IMG/VR virus record: IMGVR_UViG_3300020577_004796
Location: 9,144 to 73,143 of that record
Strand: one strand, 5' to 3'
Length of the DNA stretch: 64,000 nt
DNA from: a virus
Taxonomy: Duplodnaviria > Caudoviricetes
A program made the position numbers and the translations under genes. Under the pieces are notes generated by a model. It was not told the origin of the DNA, made no database searches, and saw only the letters and a list, made by a program, of their open reading frames with translations. This document shows positions 9,046 to 64,000 of this stretch, piece by piece. Each line of letters starts with the position of its first letter. Positions within the stretch are counted from its first letter, which is position 1.

Positions 9046-9632
9046 TCAATTCTTGTTTCTAATAAAACACCACCTAATTGCATTTTATTAAACTTAGTAA
9101 CATCTATAGAATTTGATACTAAAGCTGCACAAGCTCCTTTTGTGTTCACATTCAATCTATACTTAAATAAGTGCCAAATTTTATCTAATTTATAATCACC
9201 CGCTCCTACTGCTTCAGTATCGTGTATTACTATTAAAGGAACTTTGTTACTTATTTTTTCAATCAATTCCCAGCGTTCTTCTCCAGGTGAATGGTCAACC
9301 AGACAAATATCAATATTATCTATTGATTCAATAATTGAATATGGAGTTCTATCACATATTAATTTGTGATTATTTGATTCCATGAATTTATATTTATCCA
9401 GCCACTCTTGACTATAATCATAAGAAATAAGATTTCTGTTATTATTTACTAAACAGTGAAGATGTGATGTACTCCCGTCACCGCAACCCAATTCTACTAT
9501 AGCGCCTTCTTTTAAAATATTACAAGCTAGATATAATAAAGATCTATGATTGCACCAGTTTAAAATGCCATTTAAAAAACCACAATTGTCTTCTTTTTCT
9601 ATTTGGTTTAACCAATCTTGAGTAAATTCCAT
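9033..9632 (-). CDS. Class I SAM-dependent methyltransferase
   Basis: IVELGCGDGST motif I, LVDH and IVIHDT motifs as in sugar O-methyltransferase-like proteins. Confidence 0.65.
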   Translation of the reverse strand: MEFTQDWLNQIEKEDNCGFLNGILNWCNHRSLLYLACNILKEGAIVELGCGDGSTSHLHCLVNNNRNLISYDYSQEWLDKYKFMESNNHKLICDRTPYSIIESIDNIDICLVDHSPGEERWELIEKISNKVPLIVIHDTEAVGAGDYKLDKIWHLFKYRLNVNTKGACAALVSNSIDVTKFNKMQLGGVLLETRIEWIN

Positions 9633-21637: not shown

Positions 21638-21647
21638 TTTATTTTTG

Positions 21648-21718
21648 CACGGATAGAATGAATCGAACACTCGTTAAAGGTTTTGGAGGCCCTTGTACTG
21701 CCACTGTACGATATCCGT
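21648..21718 (-). tRNA. trnW: tRNA-Trp(CCA)
   Basis: Acceptor ACGGATA/TATCCGT, D-arm GTAC/GTAC, anticodon loop CTCCAAA, T-arm GAGTG-TTCGATT-CATTC; CCA end not encoded. Confidence 0.9.
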
Positions 21719-21826
21719 AAATAAGATAAGAAAACTAGCGTCTGGTTCAAACAGAGCTCACGCCGATATTCACTAGACTAATCTAGCTAGCCCCTGCTAT
21801 AGAAGGTCCTTCTAGCTTTCTTATTG

Positions 21827-21900
21827 TTGCGGCGGCTGGCTACGATCCAGCGATCTTGTGGTTATGAGCCACACGAGATAGTCCCCTTCTCCACGCCACA
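21827..21900 (-). tRNA. trnM: tRNA-Met(CAT), fMet-like architecture
   Basis: Acceptor TGTGGCG/CGCCGCA, anticodon arm TGTGG-CTCATAA-CCACA, variable AGATC, T-arm GCTGG-ATCGTAG-CCAGC. Confidence 0.88.
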
Positions 21901-24634: not shown

Positions 24635-24666
24635 TTTGGAATTGTTAATAATAAGTTGTACCTTTG
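24635..24666 (+). promoter_or_regulatory. Bacteroidota promoter driving the GIY-YIG gene
   Basis: TTTG-N20-TACCTTTG, 4 nt before ATG 24671. Confidence 0.8.
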
Positions 24667-24670
24667 TGGT

Positions 24671-25213
24671 ATGATTTACATATATACAATTACAAGTCCT
24701 ACGGGAAGGGTTTATGTGGGACAGACCATTAATCCTACAAAGAGAAAACACCTCTATAAGTCATTACATTGTAAGACACAATATCTCATTTATAATTCCA
24801 TATTGAAATATGGCTGGGATGCACATGTGTTTACTGTTATAGCAGAATTACCTATCGAATATGGAGATGATGCAGAAATAGCATATATTTCCTATTATAG
24901 GGCCTATCATACTGATGGTGGACTTAATCTTACTACAGGAGGATTACGCCCTAAAATGACTGTAGAAACAAAACAGAAACTATCTGCTGCTATTATGGGA
25001 GCAAAGAATGCCAGAGCTAAGAAACTATATCAATATACATTAGATAAACAACTCATTAAAATATGGGATTGTATGAAATGTATTGAGAGAGAACTTGGTT
25101 ATGGTACATCTTGGTTATCTATAGCAGCTAAAAATAATAAACAAGCTTACGGCTATCTATGGTCATATGAACCTCTGCAAGGGCTAGATGAATGGGTAAT
25201 CTGTTCATGGTAA
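24671..25213 (+). CDS. GIY-YIG homing endonuclease with NUMOD1-like C-terminus
   Basis: MIYIYTITSPTGRVYVGQT, LNLTTGG, AYGYLWSY. Confidence 0.9.
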   Translation: MIYIYTITSPTGRVYVGQTINPTKRKHLYKSLHCKTQYLIYNSILKYGWDAHVFTVIAELPIEYGDDAEIAYISYYRAYHTDGGLNLTTGGLRPKMTVETKQKLSAAIMGAKNARAKKLYQYTLDKQLIKIWDCMKCIERELGYGTSWLSIAAKNNKQAYGYLWSYEPLQGLDEWVICSW

Positions 25214-26955: not shown

Positions 26956-27250
26956 AAAAGCTCATTAAACTAATGCATTCTCTTACTTGTAAAGTATGTG
27001 GATGGCATATAAGACATTGTAAATGTCATTAATTTAATTCTTCAGATAGAATACAATGAAAATGTTGCGTTATATGATGCAAATTATTAAATACTTGCAT
27101 TATTCTATCTAAAGAATTAAATGCATACCAAACCTCAGAGGAGTTATATCCCTCACTGATTAGACAATAACTTAACACGGTAACAATTCTGTAATGTTTA
27201 AACTGATTCAAAAGGATTAAAATGTTTCAGTACATGGTTTTACAGGACGA

Positions 27251-27355
27251 GGAGGATGTTGGCTTGAAAGCAGCAATCATTTAAAGAGTGGGATGGCAAA
27301 TATGTTTTTTCTATTTTTATAGAGATAAATACCCTTTGGCGTAACAGCACACTCC
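27251..27355 (+). ncRNA. 23S rRNA H43/H44 (uL11-binding domain) mimic, copy 1
   Basis: GGAG-GATGTTGGCTTGAAAGCAGCAATCATTTAAAGAGT-[insert]-GCGTAACAGCAC-A-CTCC aligns base for base with 23S nt ~1052-1107. Confidence 0.8.
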
Positions 27356-27605
27356 AAGTTAAGTTTAATCAGTCTTTCTCCCAAAGAGTGAGGTGTTGTA
27401 ATGAGATAGGCAGGTCCCCAAAGACGGATAATAATGTAAATTAAAGAAACCGTGTTTACTACTAGCTAAGTGATTAGAAACGTAGACTAGCAATAGGTCA
27501 GCGGTAAAGAGCATGTATCTCTATTACAACAAGGTATATTGGGTGCTGATAGGAAAGACTATCCCTCTTCGGAGGTTATTCAATTCACTCATTAAAACAA
27601 TACTA

Positions 27606-27971: not shown

Positions 27972-28295
27972 ATGAACGCTAAACAAGAATTCCTAGGACA
28001 TATAGGAACCCGTATAGTAAAATGTGCTATAATACGAATAGGAGATATATATATGGATGAAGATGTAATAACTAACCTATTACCTGTAGGAGCATCTAGT
28101 ACACAGTCAGAAACATTTCTGCAGAGTATAGATAGAAATTACAATAATGGGTATGGTACTCAAGAACTATTTGGTACTATATGGTATACTGATGGTACCT
28201 GGTCTAGCAGAGGTGAATATGATGGCAGTGAATGGTGGGAACATCATAAATGCCCGGATATACCAAAAGAACTACAACAGAAGCAATATCTATAG
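27972..28295 (+). CDS. Conserved-looking phage hypothetical protein
   Basis: YNNGYGTQELFGTIWYTDGTWSSRGEYDGSEWW motif of a common small phage family. Confidence 0.65.
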   Translation: MNAKQEFLGHIGTRIVKCAIIRIGDIYMDEDVITNLLPVGASSTQSETFLQSIDRNYNNGYGTQELFGTIWYTDGTWSSRGEYDGSEWWEHHKCPDIPKELQQKQYL

Positions 28296-28503
28296 GTGGT
28301 GTGGTAGAGAATGTTGGCTTGAAAGTAGCCATCATCTAAGGAGTAGGTGAGAACCCTAAGCACAGTGGCAATCTCTGGTAATGGGAGATATGAAGTGGGC
28401 ATGGGATAAATTCAAAAGTTGGGTGGATTAAACGCCACTACCTGGTAGTCATTATACCAGCCTTTTGGTGTAACAACACACTCTGTCACATCATCTATAG
28501 ATA
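28287..28503 (+). ncRNA. 23S rRNA H43/H44 mimic, copy 2, on a 22-bp closing stem
   Basis: AGAG-AATGTTGGCTTGAAAGTAGCCATCATCTAAGGAGT-[insert]-GTGTAACAACAC-A-CTCT; closing stem 28288-28309/28481-28502 is fully paired with 4 G-U. Confidence 0.85.
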
Positions 28504-28527: not shown

Positions 28528-28660
28528 CCTCTGTAGGGGTAGTGGTAGAAAATGATATATAGCAGTTAAGTCAAAGATCCGGAAAATGGCCCATGGAGGT
28601 ACTAGACACACCTGGTCATCTGCAGTATGGATATATCAGCTACCATTACCTCTACAGAGG
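28528..28660 (+). ncRNA. Long-stem structured RNA element B
   Basis: 21-bp stem CCTCTGTAGGGGTAGTGGTAG/CTACCATTACCTCTACAGAGG (2 G-U) enclosing further stems. Confidence 0.6.
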
Positions 28661-31791: not shown

Positions 31792-32167
31792 GGGCCCGAA
31801 AGGCAATCGACTTGCAATATTAAGAGCAACAGACATGCAGGGAAGGTGTGTTGACCACTAATACACGCACAACAACAAATGCTAAAGTTAGCAAAAGCGC
31901 TATGACCTTTGGTCGTACTCGCACGATTGATGTTACTTCTTTCGCCCGCCCACGTGGCCTGGCGTTTGCAGCCTAACACCACTTCTGGTGAGAAGTAAAC
32001 ACACCAAAAACTGTTTTGAAATCTCAGTAAAGGATACCTTGACGTTGGAAGTAGATGTAAAGTATGCATAACTTCATAGTTTGATAGAACAATAAACTGA
32101 TCTAAAGCATGTGAAAAGACTGTATTATTAAATTGTAAACACGTTCGTTCGAATCGAACCGGGTCCA
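31792..32167 (+). ncRNA. ssrA: tmRNA (transfer-messenger RNA)
   Basis: Acceptor GGGCCCG/CGGGTCC with G3-U70 and A73; T-arm GTTCG-TTCGAAT-CGAAC; CAGACATGC/GCATGTGAAAAGACTG pairing; tag frame 31881-31976 ends LAFAA-stop. Confidence 0.95.
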
Positions 32168-32232
32168 CGAATCCACAATAAATTTGGCGAGTCCACTTTT
32201 ATTAAGAAATTCAGCCAAGTAAGAATGGCGCC

Positions 32233-41646: not shown

Positions 41647-42178
41647 GTCTATCATAATATCCAAAAGATAGCTTACTTTCATCAGTAGAAATACCAAAGT
41701 GAAATACAACGTGGGACGTTCTATTTTGTGGGTACTTATTTAAATAAGTATGATGAAAGGACATGGTGGCATGATGTAATGGACAGCATGAATCTCTTCT
41801 AAAGATTTCGTTCCAGTTCGAACCTGGATGCTACTACAAAAATAAATTTGGTAAATTAATATAATAAGAAGTGTGTGGTAGTAAAATCGAACGCTAGAAA
41901 GAGGATAGCATTTACATATGTATCCAGATAGATACATCCGTAGCTGAGAATCTCCACTATTCCTTATTATATTTATATTTTTTCACTTATCAAAACTCAC
42001 GTTATGACAAAACAAAAAGTAATCGAGTTCCTTGAAAGACAAGGAGCCAGATGCCGTTATTCAGGCAAAGAAAAAACATTGTACATACAGCGCCCATCTT
42101 CCTGGACAAGTAATTCAGAGATAGTAATAGGGCAGAAGTATGGTATTCTTCCAGACTTTCAACTAAAGGAGGTAGAAA

Positions 42179-62958: not shown

Positions 62959-63549
62959 ATGACAGAAATAAATAATAATTTACTAGTACAAAGAACAGAA
63001 CAAAAAAAAGAAAGAAAAATATATTGTATTCGTGGAGCACGTGGCTACGCTGGATGGATGAATGGAACGATTGTTCCTACCATTGAAGAAGCCGACTTAA
63101 TTGTTGCTCCGGGTGGATCGGATATAGATCCTCGCTTATACGGCAGAACACAACATCACCAATTTGCATGGGGGTCTACTCGCATGGAAAATGATGGAGA
63201 GTTGGAAGATCTGAAAAAAGCCATTAGGCTGGGTAAGAAAATATGGGGGACTTGTAAAGGTATTCAATATGGTTCTGCTTTATCCGGTGGTCTTTTAGTT
63301 GCAGATGTTTCACATCCGTATAAACATCCTATAAAAACAGAAGACGGAAAAACGCTTATAGTAAATTCAATGCATCATCAGCTCTGTTATCCTTTTAATC
63401 TTCCAAAAGATGAATATCGTATCATAGGTTGGTCAGAAGGGATTTCAAATCACTATGACGATGTAGACGGGACACAAATGGAAGTTCCAGTAGAGCCGGA
63501 AATATTATATTTTCCTAAAACAAACTATTTAGGAACACAATTCCACCCT
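62959..63549 (+). CDS. Second class I glutamine amidotransferase / C26, exon 1
   Basis: PGGSDIDP, GTCKGIQ, NSMHHQ, ends GTQFHP at an intron junction; exon 2 lies beyond the window. Confidence 0.85.
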
Positions 63550-64000
63550 TAACTTGGGGGTGATAAAATCGAATGAATTGCTGGAACGCTAAAGAGAAAT
63601 CTAAGCCAATCAGCAGCCAAGCTATTTAGGAATAAATAGAAGGTTCAACGACTAATAGTATACCACCAGAACGGTGATGAAACTAACACGAGCGTTCGAT
63701 ATATATACGTTCAATTAAATATTGTTTCTCAATTAATTCACCATTATTAGCGTGAATTTGTAAAGTACTTTTGCAAAAATCAATAGCAATTTGTACCTCT
63801 TTTAGTGTTTTATACACATTTATAGTATTATTTATTACATCTGTAACTTTTATAACAAATTTTTTAGAAATAACAGGTTTTACTAACTCTGGGTATTTAT
63901 ATTTCCAAATATAACCACCTGCGGTTTTTTGATTAGGAATTTTTCTACACGTTTTATATATTCCTACTCTACATATTCCTGTTTGTCTAGCAGCTTCTGC
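63550..64000 (+). mobile_element. Group I intron in GATase 2 (5' part)
   Basis: P1 CACCCU/GGGGTG; P AATTGCTGGAA, Q AATCAGCAG, R GTTCAACGACTA; S and 3' end outside the window. Confidence 0.85.
63683..64000 (-). CDS. C-terminus of a NUMOD1-type homing-endonuclease-like ORF, antisense to the intron
   Basis: Hand translation AEAARQTGICRVGIYKTCR...KTAGGYIWKY...YKTLKEVQ...ERSC-stop. Confidence 0.7.
   Translation of the reverse strand, partial: AEAARQTGICRVGIYKTCRKIPNQKTAGGYIWKYKYPELVKPVISKKFVIKVTDVINNTINVYKTLKEVQIAIDFCKSTLQIHANNGELIEKQYLIERIYIERSC

Follow-up and report, generated by a model that had tools for sequence, protein, structure and literature searches.

We analyzed a window of 64,000 nt of viral DNA, comprising positions 9,144 to 73,143 of the IMG/VR record IMGVR_UViG_3300020577_004796, which is 73 kb long and estimated to be 61% complete. 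In a 557-nt gap between two small plus-strand open reading frames (ORFs), the window holds a non-coding gene of ≈107 bases (27250–27356, plus strand) for an RNA resembling the part of 23S ribosomal RNA (rRNA) known as the GTPase-associated center (GAC), which includes helices 43 and 44 (H43 and H44). No ORF of 40 or more amino acids was found over 27247–27356 on either strand. This gene is referred to as copy 1; a second, copy 2, lies ≈1 kb downstream. On the ribosome, the GAC domain is bound by protein uL11, serves as a docking site for EF-G, EF-Tu and RelA-bound tRNA, and is a target of thiopeptides. uL11 recognizes the shape of the domain, and positions 1051–1108 of the E. coli 23S rRNA are the minimal fragment that binds uL11 and thiostrepton, the latter via A1067 and A1095.

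Copy 1 was found to follow E. coli 23S rRNA 1051–1108 in register, position for position, with its sole interruption between 1090 and 1091. The 5′ half (27250–27289, plus strand), AGGAGGAUGUUGGCUUGAAAGCAGCAAUCAUUUAAAGAGU, corresponds to 1051–1090 and the 3′ half (27339–27356, plus strand), GCGUAACAGCACACUCCA, to 1091–1108, both without a gap. The interruption consists of 49 nt in total, a 45-nt hairpin followed by UUUG. In the closing helix, GGAG (27251–27254) pairs with CUCC (27352–27355), substituting for the CCAG/CUGG of E. coli. The nucleotides that make tertiary contacts in the rRNA are present: U1060 (27259), G1071 (27270), C1072 (27271), U1082 (27281), A1086 (27285), A1088 (27287), C1092 (27340), A1095 (27343) and G1099 (27347). 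The gap-free alignment with an insertion of ≈49 nt, the compensated closing helix and this set of tertiary positions (U1060/A1088, G1071, C1072–C1092–G1099, U1082/A1086 and A1095) had all been described in an earlier note made from the sequence of the window, and they were borne out. Relative to E. coli, copy 1 carries the substitutions A1067G, G1068A, C1076A, A1089G, A1090U, U1097C and U1101A. The parts of copy 1 are listed in Table 1, together with other features.

Table 1. Parts of copy 1, followed by copy 2 and by features of related loci. Positions are those of the window unless a locus (L number) is given; numbers in parentheses under Feature are E. coli 23S positions.
Feature	Position	Strand	Remarks
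Closing helix, 5′ strand (1051–1056)	27250–27255	+	Equivalent of the top of H42; from sequence
H43 hairpin (1057–1081), loop 1065–1073	27256–27280	+	From sequence and BLAST to the E. coli 23S gene
Mini-hairpin UUAAA (1082–1086)	27281–27285	+	Closed by the single U1082–A1086 pair; two stacked adenines
GAGU (1087–1090)	27286–27289	+	Forms the base of H44; includes A1088, which partners U1060
Inserted AU-rich hairpin, 45 nt	27290–27334	+	Opens with GGG, closes with CCC
Junction linker UUUG	27335–27338	+	Between the insertion and G1091
Distal H44 (1091–1102)	27339–27350	+	G1091–C1100, C1092–G1099, loop GUAACA with A1095, then A1101 and C1102
A1103 and closing helix, 3′ strand (1104–1108)	27351–27356	+	From sequence and covariation
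Copy 2	28290–28500	+	Core 28305–28344 and 28468–28485; 119-nt insertion 28345–28463 at the same site
Sarcin–ricin-loop-like hairpins in members with ≈310-nt insertions	L088:2758–2796; L009:7825–7863; L132:831–869; L022:8410–8448; L092:4754–4792; L144:2449–2487	− (L009)	Covarying stem
Members with a hairpin at 1077/1078	L224, L244, L278, L243, L238, L258, L282, L208, L189, L273, L223		
CCA-adding enzyme	L108:2077–3543		Also in relatives L005, L015, L122 and others

A BLAST search with 27247–27292 gave a match to the 23S rRNA gene (36 nt, ≈92% identity, E = 1e-4) in every one of 5,426 complete genomes of E. coli, and the 20-mer of H43 occurred twice in the window but in none of 100 shuffled versions. 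In the 4 kb around copy 1, only 36 nt aligned to E. coli 23S rRNA, compared to 1,100–2,860 nt in the same test at true rRNA loci, and for this reason copy 1 is not considered a fragment of an rRNA gene, as the earlier note had also concluded from the lack of flanking rRNA. A 23S gene or gene fragment was further rejected because the neighboring rRNA helices (H41–H42 upstream, H45 onward downstream) are not contiguous with it. No Rfam rRNA model, including LSU_rRNA_bacteria, matched at copy 1.

With pattern scans and a covariance model, R1, built from 16 members, well over 150 distinct relatives were recovered, in contigs of viral, metagenome and bacterial origin. A 5′-half pattern in IUPAC code matched 40 stretches in IMG/VR, 39 of which stood alone and had an insertion after GAGU, the remaining one being a true 23S gene; a looser pattern yielded additional ones. 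Run over one genome per prokaryote species, the pattern found eight real rRNAs, from Patescibacteria and Latescibacterota, and six stand-alone copies. The stand-alone bacterial copies include one in the cultured Flintibacter muris DSM 110149 and others in metagenome-assembled genomes of Lachnospiraceae, Bacteroidales and Candidatus Limenecus. The metagenome scan gave at least 119 stretches, and R1 recovered 106 matches in 100 sources. Copy 1 itself scored 100.8 bits, a value that is not independent since copy 1 is part of the seed. As a control for ascertainment, IMG/VR was scanned with the family-specific 3′ half alone, TTTGGCGTAAYAGCACAC, which matched at least 118 stretches; R1 matched 99 times in 100 new loci. 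Two samples were thus available: a first one of 74 unique complete members, whose 3′ halves lay outside the search pattern, and a second one collected by the 3′ half only, whose 5′ halves were free to vary. Copy 1 has all the hallmarks of the family, i.e., the GAC core, the insertion between 1090 and 1091 with its covarying base, the flanking GAGU and UUU(G/A), A1101 and a closing helix of its own, and it is the most compact member seen.

One metagenome contig contains a divergent second copy (L114:4131–4268, minus strand; 36 bits) with a shortened H43 loop, a U1092–A1099 pair and the loop CGAAAA, and therefore more distant relatives exist than the patterns reach.

The contacts that build the fold were found to covary. 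Among the 74 members, the base triple 1072/1092/1099 was C/C/G in 69 and U/U/A in the other 5, without exception, positions 1092 and 1099 having been outside the search pattern of this sample; in 100 members, there were 94 C/C/G, 5 U/U/A and one U–G wobble. The first sample also showed alternative pairs at 1057–1081 (A–U in 68, C–G in 6) and at 1082–1086 (C–G in 43, U–A in 27, A–U in 2, with 2 mismatches). In the second sample, the 1058–1080 pair was UA in 27, GC in 25 and AU in 19, and was never unpaired. All five pairs of the closing helix (1051–1055 with 1104–1108) had changed on both sides. All four Watson–Crick types occurred in this helix and likewise at the base of the insertion, whose first three pairs were formed in 93–100% of members. 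Overall, 96.6% of cells in the first sample were paired, compared to 80.4% in shuffles, and the covariation score was 0.401, compared to 0.118 in shuffles (reached in 0 of 500) and at most 0.146 with slid partners. The second sample gave 94.6% paired against 73.7% shuffled, a covariation score of 0.46 against 0.11 (again reached in 0 of 500 shuffles, and at most 0.15 with slid partners), and both-sided changes in 14 of 20 pairs. Positions 1061 and 1077 were often non-standard there (24 cells) and therefore do not behave as a Watson–Crick pair in this family.

The covarying contacts are those listed for the rRNA domain, in which C1072 contacts C1092 and G1099, G1071 contacts G1091 and C1100, and U1082–A1086 is a single pair, replaced by C–G in Haloarcula (PMC2952862). 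These patterns indicate that the tertiary fold is under selection across the family. They lend strong support to the structural proposal of the earlier note, a free-standing H43/H44 mimic that keeps its tertiary contacts, and homologs in which those contacts covary were found in both the 74- and the 100-member samples. The triple also takes other forms in true 23S rRNAs: those of Patescibacteria (L045, L049, L053, L055–L057) have U1072 with U1092–A1099, and those of Latescibacterota (L044, L046) appear to have G1072 with G1092–C1099. The same triple thus appears to covary naturally in the cellular rRNA of these two groups.

The 3′ half, which was not forced by the search in the first sample, contained a set of invariant nucleotides: UUU of the linker, G1091, G1093, U1094, A1095, A1098, C1100, A1101 and C1102. 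A1103 was kept in 73 of 74 members, and the base that follows UUU was G in 67, A in 6 and U in 1. In the second sample, G1087 (83/83) and U1090 (81/81) were invariant, which was not forced by the search either, since that sample was gathered with the 3′ half only. Variation was concentrated elsewhere, at 1096 (A in 58 and G in 14 of 74) and 1097, while the unbiased 5′ halves had A at 1067 in 82%, G at 1068 in 74% and A at 1070 in 77%, and A1067 was kept in 82–86% of members overall. In rRNA, the exposed tips of the GAC are invariant because factors, tRNA and thiopeptides touch them. The phage family is relaxed at these tips (1067, 1068, 1096 and 1097), whereas the nucleotides that build the fold are fixed. 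Such a pattern agrees better with a partner that binds the domain in its folded form, uL11 being the obvious candidate, than with factor or thiostrepton contacts. Contacts of thiostrepton or EF-G at 1067 are unlikely to be the selected feature, because A1067 is kept in only 82–86%, 1096 and 1097 vary, and copy 1 has G1067/A1068; G1067 in particular argues against recognition of the thiostrepton type.

Compared to the bacterial 23S GAC, the phage RNA has the same secondary structure and the same contacts (U1060–A1088, G1071/G1091–C1100, C1072/C1092–G1099 and 1082–1086), and the loop nucleotides G1093, U1094, A1095 and A1098 are equally conserved. In contrast to the rRNA domain, it stands alone, is closed by a short, arbitrary helix, has a hairpin plus UUUG at 1090/1091 and A at 1101, and covaries freely at 1058–1080, which is fixed in rRNA. 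Neither a conserved H42 sequence nor a kink-turn was found in the closing helices of the family, which are plain covarying duplexes. They therefore do not recreate the H42 site for uL10, and uL10 binding, which the earlier note had proposed alongside uL11 binding, is not supported.

Copy 2 is 85% identical to copy 1 in its core, over 41 nt, has a closing stem of 20 bp and scored 113.4 bits with R1. The model found these two copies and no further ones in the 73-kb record, and one copy in each of five other large phage records. The tertiary partners of copy 2 form an alternative, isosteric set, U1072 with U1092–A1099 and C1082–G1086, whereas copy 1 has the C/C–G triple and U1082–A1086, which fits the earlier note's label of "bacterial-type covariants" for copy 1. 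Both copies have the G1067/A1068 combination, which is rare (4 of 74 members). The insertion of copy 2 resembles that of another member with the U/U–A triple (L097).

The insertion site was identical in every member, and the inserted sequences were diverse, ranging from 45 nt in copy 1, the shortest in the sample, to between 54 and ≈315 nt in the others, and falling into 51 similarity clusters among 74 members. A sensitive BLAST search of the 74 insertions against E. coli 23S rRNA gave chance-level words only. Insertions of ≈280–315 nt have a conserved, ornate domain in common. Within the ≈310-nt class, seven members contain a UAGUAC(GAGA/AGAA)GGAA hairpin with a covarying stem that aligns to E. 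coli 2653–2665, the sarcin–ricin loop (SRL), and in these members a single RNA would be a copy of both halves of the ribosomal GTPase center. Matches to an SRL pattern over the 74 insertions were confined to this class, and no SRL-like site above chance was found in the window. The insertion is not an intron, as there was no group I model match there, its size goes down to 45 nt and its helix abuts both junctions; nor is it another piece of rRNA or a general SRL, given the chance-level 23S matches and the restriction of the SRL to the ≈310-nt class. Some members have a second insertion, at ≈1077/1078, which forms a hairpin in the 3′ strand of H43 after GCAGCCA. This expansion site is where rRNA has the bulged U1078.

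A tRNA gene was present within 2 kb of 47 of the 74 unique members, within 500 nt for 42 of them, and on the same strand in all 47 cases; many members are directly flanked by tRNAs, and transfer-messenger RNAs (tmRNAs) are often near. This location marks the element as a stable-RNA gene that is presumably co-expressed with tRNAs. The niche and strand are those of phage tRNAs and tmRNAs in tRNA arrays, and transcription and processing are presumably the same, but the mimic is not tRNA-shaped, is not recognized by ARAGORN or by tRNA and tmRNA models, and imitates rRNA. No conserved protein family was found next to it: an all-versus-all comparison of 1,099 neighboring ORFs gave lineage-specific synteny only. 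No uL11 gene was found in the record that contains the window or in the five large phage records carrying the RNA, and therefore any uL11 partner of these six phages must come from the host.

Some lineages have neighbors of their own. In a group of ≈180–220-kb phages, a CCA-adding enzyme with a PolyA_pol head and an HD domain begins 100 nt downstream of the mimic. A homolog of this enzyme, 30% identical, is encoded ≈5 kb from the mimic in L078. The F. muris member (L051:1109–1306; NZ_CALPCP010000004.1) is in a prophage-like region, between a tail-fiber gene and a gene for a 730-aa fusion of polynucleotide kinase-phosphatase and RNA ligase, which is followed by several DNA methyltransferase genes.

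The large terminase of the window phage shares 25% identity with terminases from Bacteroidota crAss-like phages, and the carrier appears to be an uncultured crAss-like phage. Copy 1 occupies an intergenic position in an early block of plus-strand genes. The same-strand tRNA-array location seen in most of the family is not found for either copy: copy 1 has no adjoining tRNA genes, the nearest tRNA genes to both copies are 5–6 kb away on the opposite strand, and a tmRNA predicted by ARAGORN is encoded on the same strand, 3.3 kb downstream. Among the neighboring ORFs, matches were found to DUF7666, phrog_3972 and a GIY-YIG endonuclease, and the remaining small ORFs had no matches; as neighbors of the RNA, these ORFs were uninformative.

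Several further features of the window were observed. The small ORF between the two copies (27972–28295) is phrog_3972, of unknown function. At the DNA level, it is related (76–81%, ≈100 nt) to sequences of T5-like phages that infect Escherichia and Salmonella, and also to sequences of some phages of Klebsiella and Pectobacterium, in contrast to the crAss-like terminase. An AU-rich inverted repeat of 22 bp, 95% complementary, is located 125 nt upstream of copy 1 (27032–27122); its Rfam matches were miRNA-like only and at chance level. Further long-stem hairpins are found at 28528–28660, and the ORF for the GIY-YIG homing endonuclease (24656–25213) is 2 kb upstream of copy 1. Elsewhere in the window are tRNA-Trp and tRNA-Met on the minus strand (21647–21900), the ARAGORN-predicted tmRNA (31792–32168, plus strand), tRNA-Arg (41765–41837, plus strand) and a group I intron (63540–63765, 58 bits).

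When the window and 14 related loci were searched with Rfam 15 at gathering scores, only tRNAs, tmRNAs and group I introns were found, all elsewhere than at the mimic. Both copies and one long member had no relevant match even at E ≤ 10. A known Rfam family was thus rejected, and we could not find this large phage RNA family described in the full-text literature. To our knowledge, rRNA mimicry off the ribosome is otherwise known only from short, cis-acting leaders of ribosomal protein operons. The L10 leader (RF00557), a mimic of the H42 site for uL10, has in common with the phage RNA that a protein site of the rRNA is imitated off the ribosome. However, the leaders are 5′ untranslated regions with a local motif that act in cis, whereas the phage RNA is a self-contained gene among tRNA genes and reproduces a whole tertiary domain. 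A leader such as the L10 leader was rejected, as there was no Rfam match at E ≤ 10 and the neighbors of copy 1 are small hypothetical ORFs and the GIY-YIG homing endonuclease. 6S RNA is a decoy that imitates an open promoter; the proposed logic, that a free RNA titrates a protein, is shared with it, while the target and the fold differ and decoy action of the phage RNA is presumed.

Our best explanation, which we hold tentatively, is that copy 1 is the gene of a small, stable non-coding RNA with the GAC fold that stands free of the ribosome and acts as a decoy of the factor-binding site by binding uL11. The RNA would be made from the plus strand and would fold into the compact GAC tertiary structure, in which the base triples of G1071 and C1072, together with U1060–A1088, would hold H43 and H44 side by side, the 1082–1086 mini-hairpin would be seated in the junction, and a short helix would close the domain in the place of H42. 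The variable hairpin would project from H44 at 1090/1091 through the conserved GAGU/UUUG junction. In most relatives, the RNA would probably be released from the tRNA array by tRNA processing. Once free, it would display the surface that host uL11 reads on the ribosome, and thus bind uL11. Acting in trans as an imitation of the stalk base, it would draw uL11 off ribosomes and blunt RelA-dependent (p)ppGpp signaling; alternatively, it could serve as a surrogate site for whatever else reads the stalk-base surface. We infer the production of the RNA, its GAC-like folding and the binding of host uL11 from the sequences of the family. Titration of uL11, leading to a relaxed, RelA-blind state, seems the most likely of three compatible readings, and is ranked first because conservation points to the fold and not to the tips contacted by factors. 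The other two, a surrogate for toxins and an imitation of the factor site, are not exclusive of it or of each other. The roles proposed in the earlier note, i.e., a uL11 decoy, a damper of stringent-response signaling or a sink for an rRNA-targeting enzyme, are thus plausible.

A number of observations weigh against uL11 titration. The case for uL11 binding is drawn solely from the conservation of the fold, and the insertion at 1090/1091 interrupts the H44 stack, so that the accessibility of the uL11 face has to be presumed. A stoichiometric decoy must also compete with tens of thousands of ribosomes. In copy 1, A1076 faces G1062, giving a G–A mismatch in H43, the closing helix has just 4 bp, and G1067/A1068 is present. 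Its minimum-free-energy fold is unexceptional (z = −1.9), as would be expected of a fold that tertiary contacts hold together, and promoter- and terminator-like matches around it are at chance level and uninformative. Lastly, the SRL copy in relatives with long insertions and the RNA-repair and CCA-adding neighbors of some members point to factor binding or counter-defense and not to simple titration of uL11.

In one alternative, the RNA would be a counter-defense decoy, a surrogate substrate or tightly bound pseudo-substrate for enzymes of the host or of competitors that attack the 23S GAC, such as ADP-ribosyltransferases, nucleases or methylases, and would shield the ribosomes during infection by the same logic as phage tRNA arrays, which supply substitutes for tRNAs attacked by anticodon nucleases. 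A toxin directed at the GAC does exist: Tre23 ADP-ribosylates H44 at 1095–1098 and blocks the EF-G GTPase (PMC8661411). The mimic reproduces the target hairpin, a resemblance of the site alone, and 1096 and 1097 are the variable positions of its otherwise invariant loop. The location within tRNA arrays, the CCA-adding enzyme in one jumbo-phage group, the kinase-phosphatase/RNA ligase next to the F. muris member and the subclass that also copies the SRL, the other classic ribotoxin target, would all agree with such a role. However, no anti-phage defense system that targets the GAC is known, and, since enzymes turn over, a decoy substrate would give little protection if it did not trap the enzyme. 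These neighbor associations occur in three lineages only, and the window phage has none of them. We consider counter-defense a serious alternative, although on balance unlikely.

The SRL-like hairpins in the seven long members also favor, for this minority of members, the idea that the RNA with uL11, and with the SRL copy in the long forms, imitates the docking site of translational GTPases or stalk-base readers (EF-G, EF-Tu, IF2, RF3, HflX, BipA or RelA/tRNA), which would be sequestered or have their GTPase triggered off the ribosome, reprogramming host translation. In addition, A1095 is invariant and A1067 is mostly kept. Nevertheless, both window copies and most other members have no SRL-like element, A1067 and G1068 are altered in both copies, and we know of no tight binding of factors by isolated GAC RNA without the rest of the ribosome, which makes this a doubtful explanation.

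The diversity of the insertions, the ornate domains conserved in some of them and the second insertion site at 1077/1078 would suit a GAC fold that is a stable, protein-protected carrier for a functional cargo in the insertion. But the GAC core and its junction are the sole part common to all members, the insertion of copy 1, a minimal AU-rich hairpin, contains no conserved element, and a mere carrier would not need every tertiary contact of one rRNA domain; this reading is therefore improbable. Although rRNA mimicry is a known principle of ribosomal protein leaders and a 36-nt stretch of the core shares 92% identity with rRNA, a cis-regulatory leader or a dead rRNA fragment acquired by recombination is highly improbable and is judged excluded by context and covariation, as no ribosomal protein gene is near, the closing helix is its own, tRNA genes usually flank the element, no Rfam leader matches, and more than 150 diverged copies with compensatory changes are incompatible with a decaying fragment.

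Taken together, we think it rather likely that stand-alone replicas of the GAC, some with an SRL copy, are carried by phages of many bacterial phyla, and that these replicas form a new class of RNA acting in trans by imitation of the factor-binding site. They would either bind up host uL11 or readers of the stalk base, whereby the stringent response is silenced or translation retuned, or neutralize ribosome-targeting toxins. A complete rRNA tertiary domain is here found copied into a stand-alone gene and maintained by selection in hundreds of phages of gut, rumen, soil and water origin. For the GAC fold, the family would provide covariation data of natural origin and natural expansion sites, at 1090/1091 and 1077/1078; structural work would gain compact natural uL11-binding RNAs. 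The cultured F. muris DSM 110149, with its prophage member, could serve as an experimental system. Should the RNA act as a decoy, viruses would have in it a new means of manipulating translation, the stringent response or immunity directed at the ribosome.

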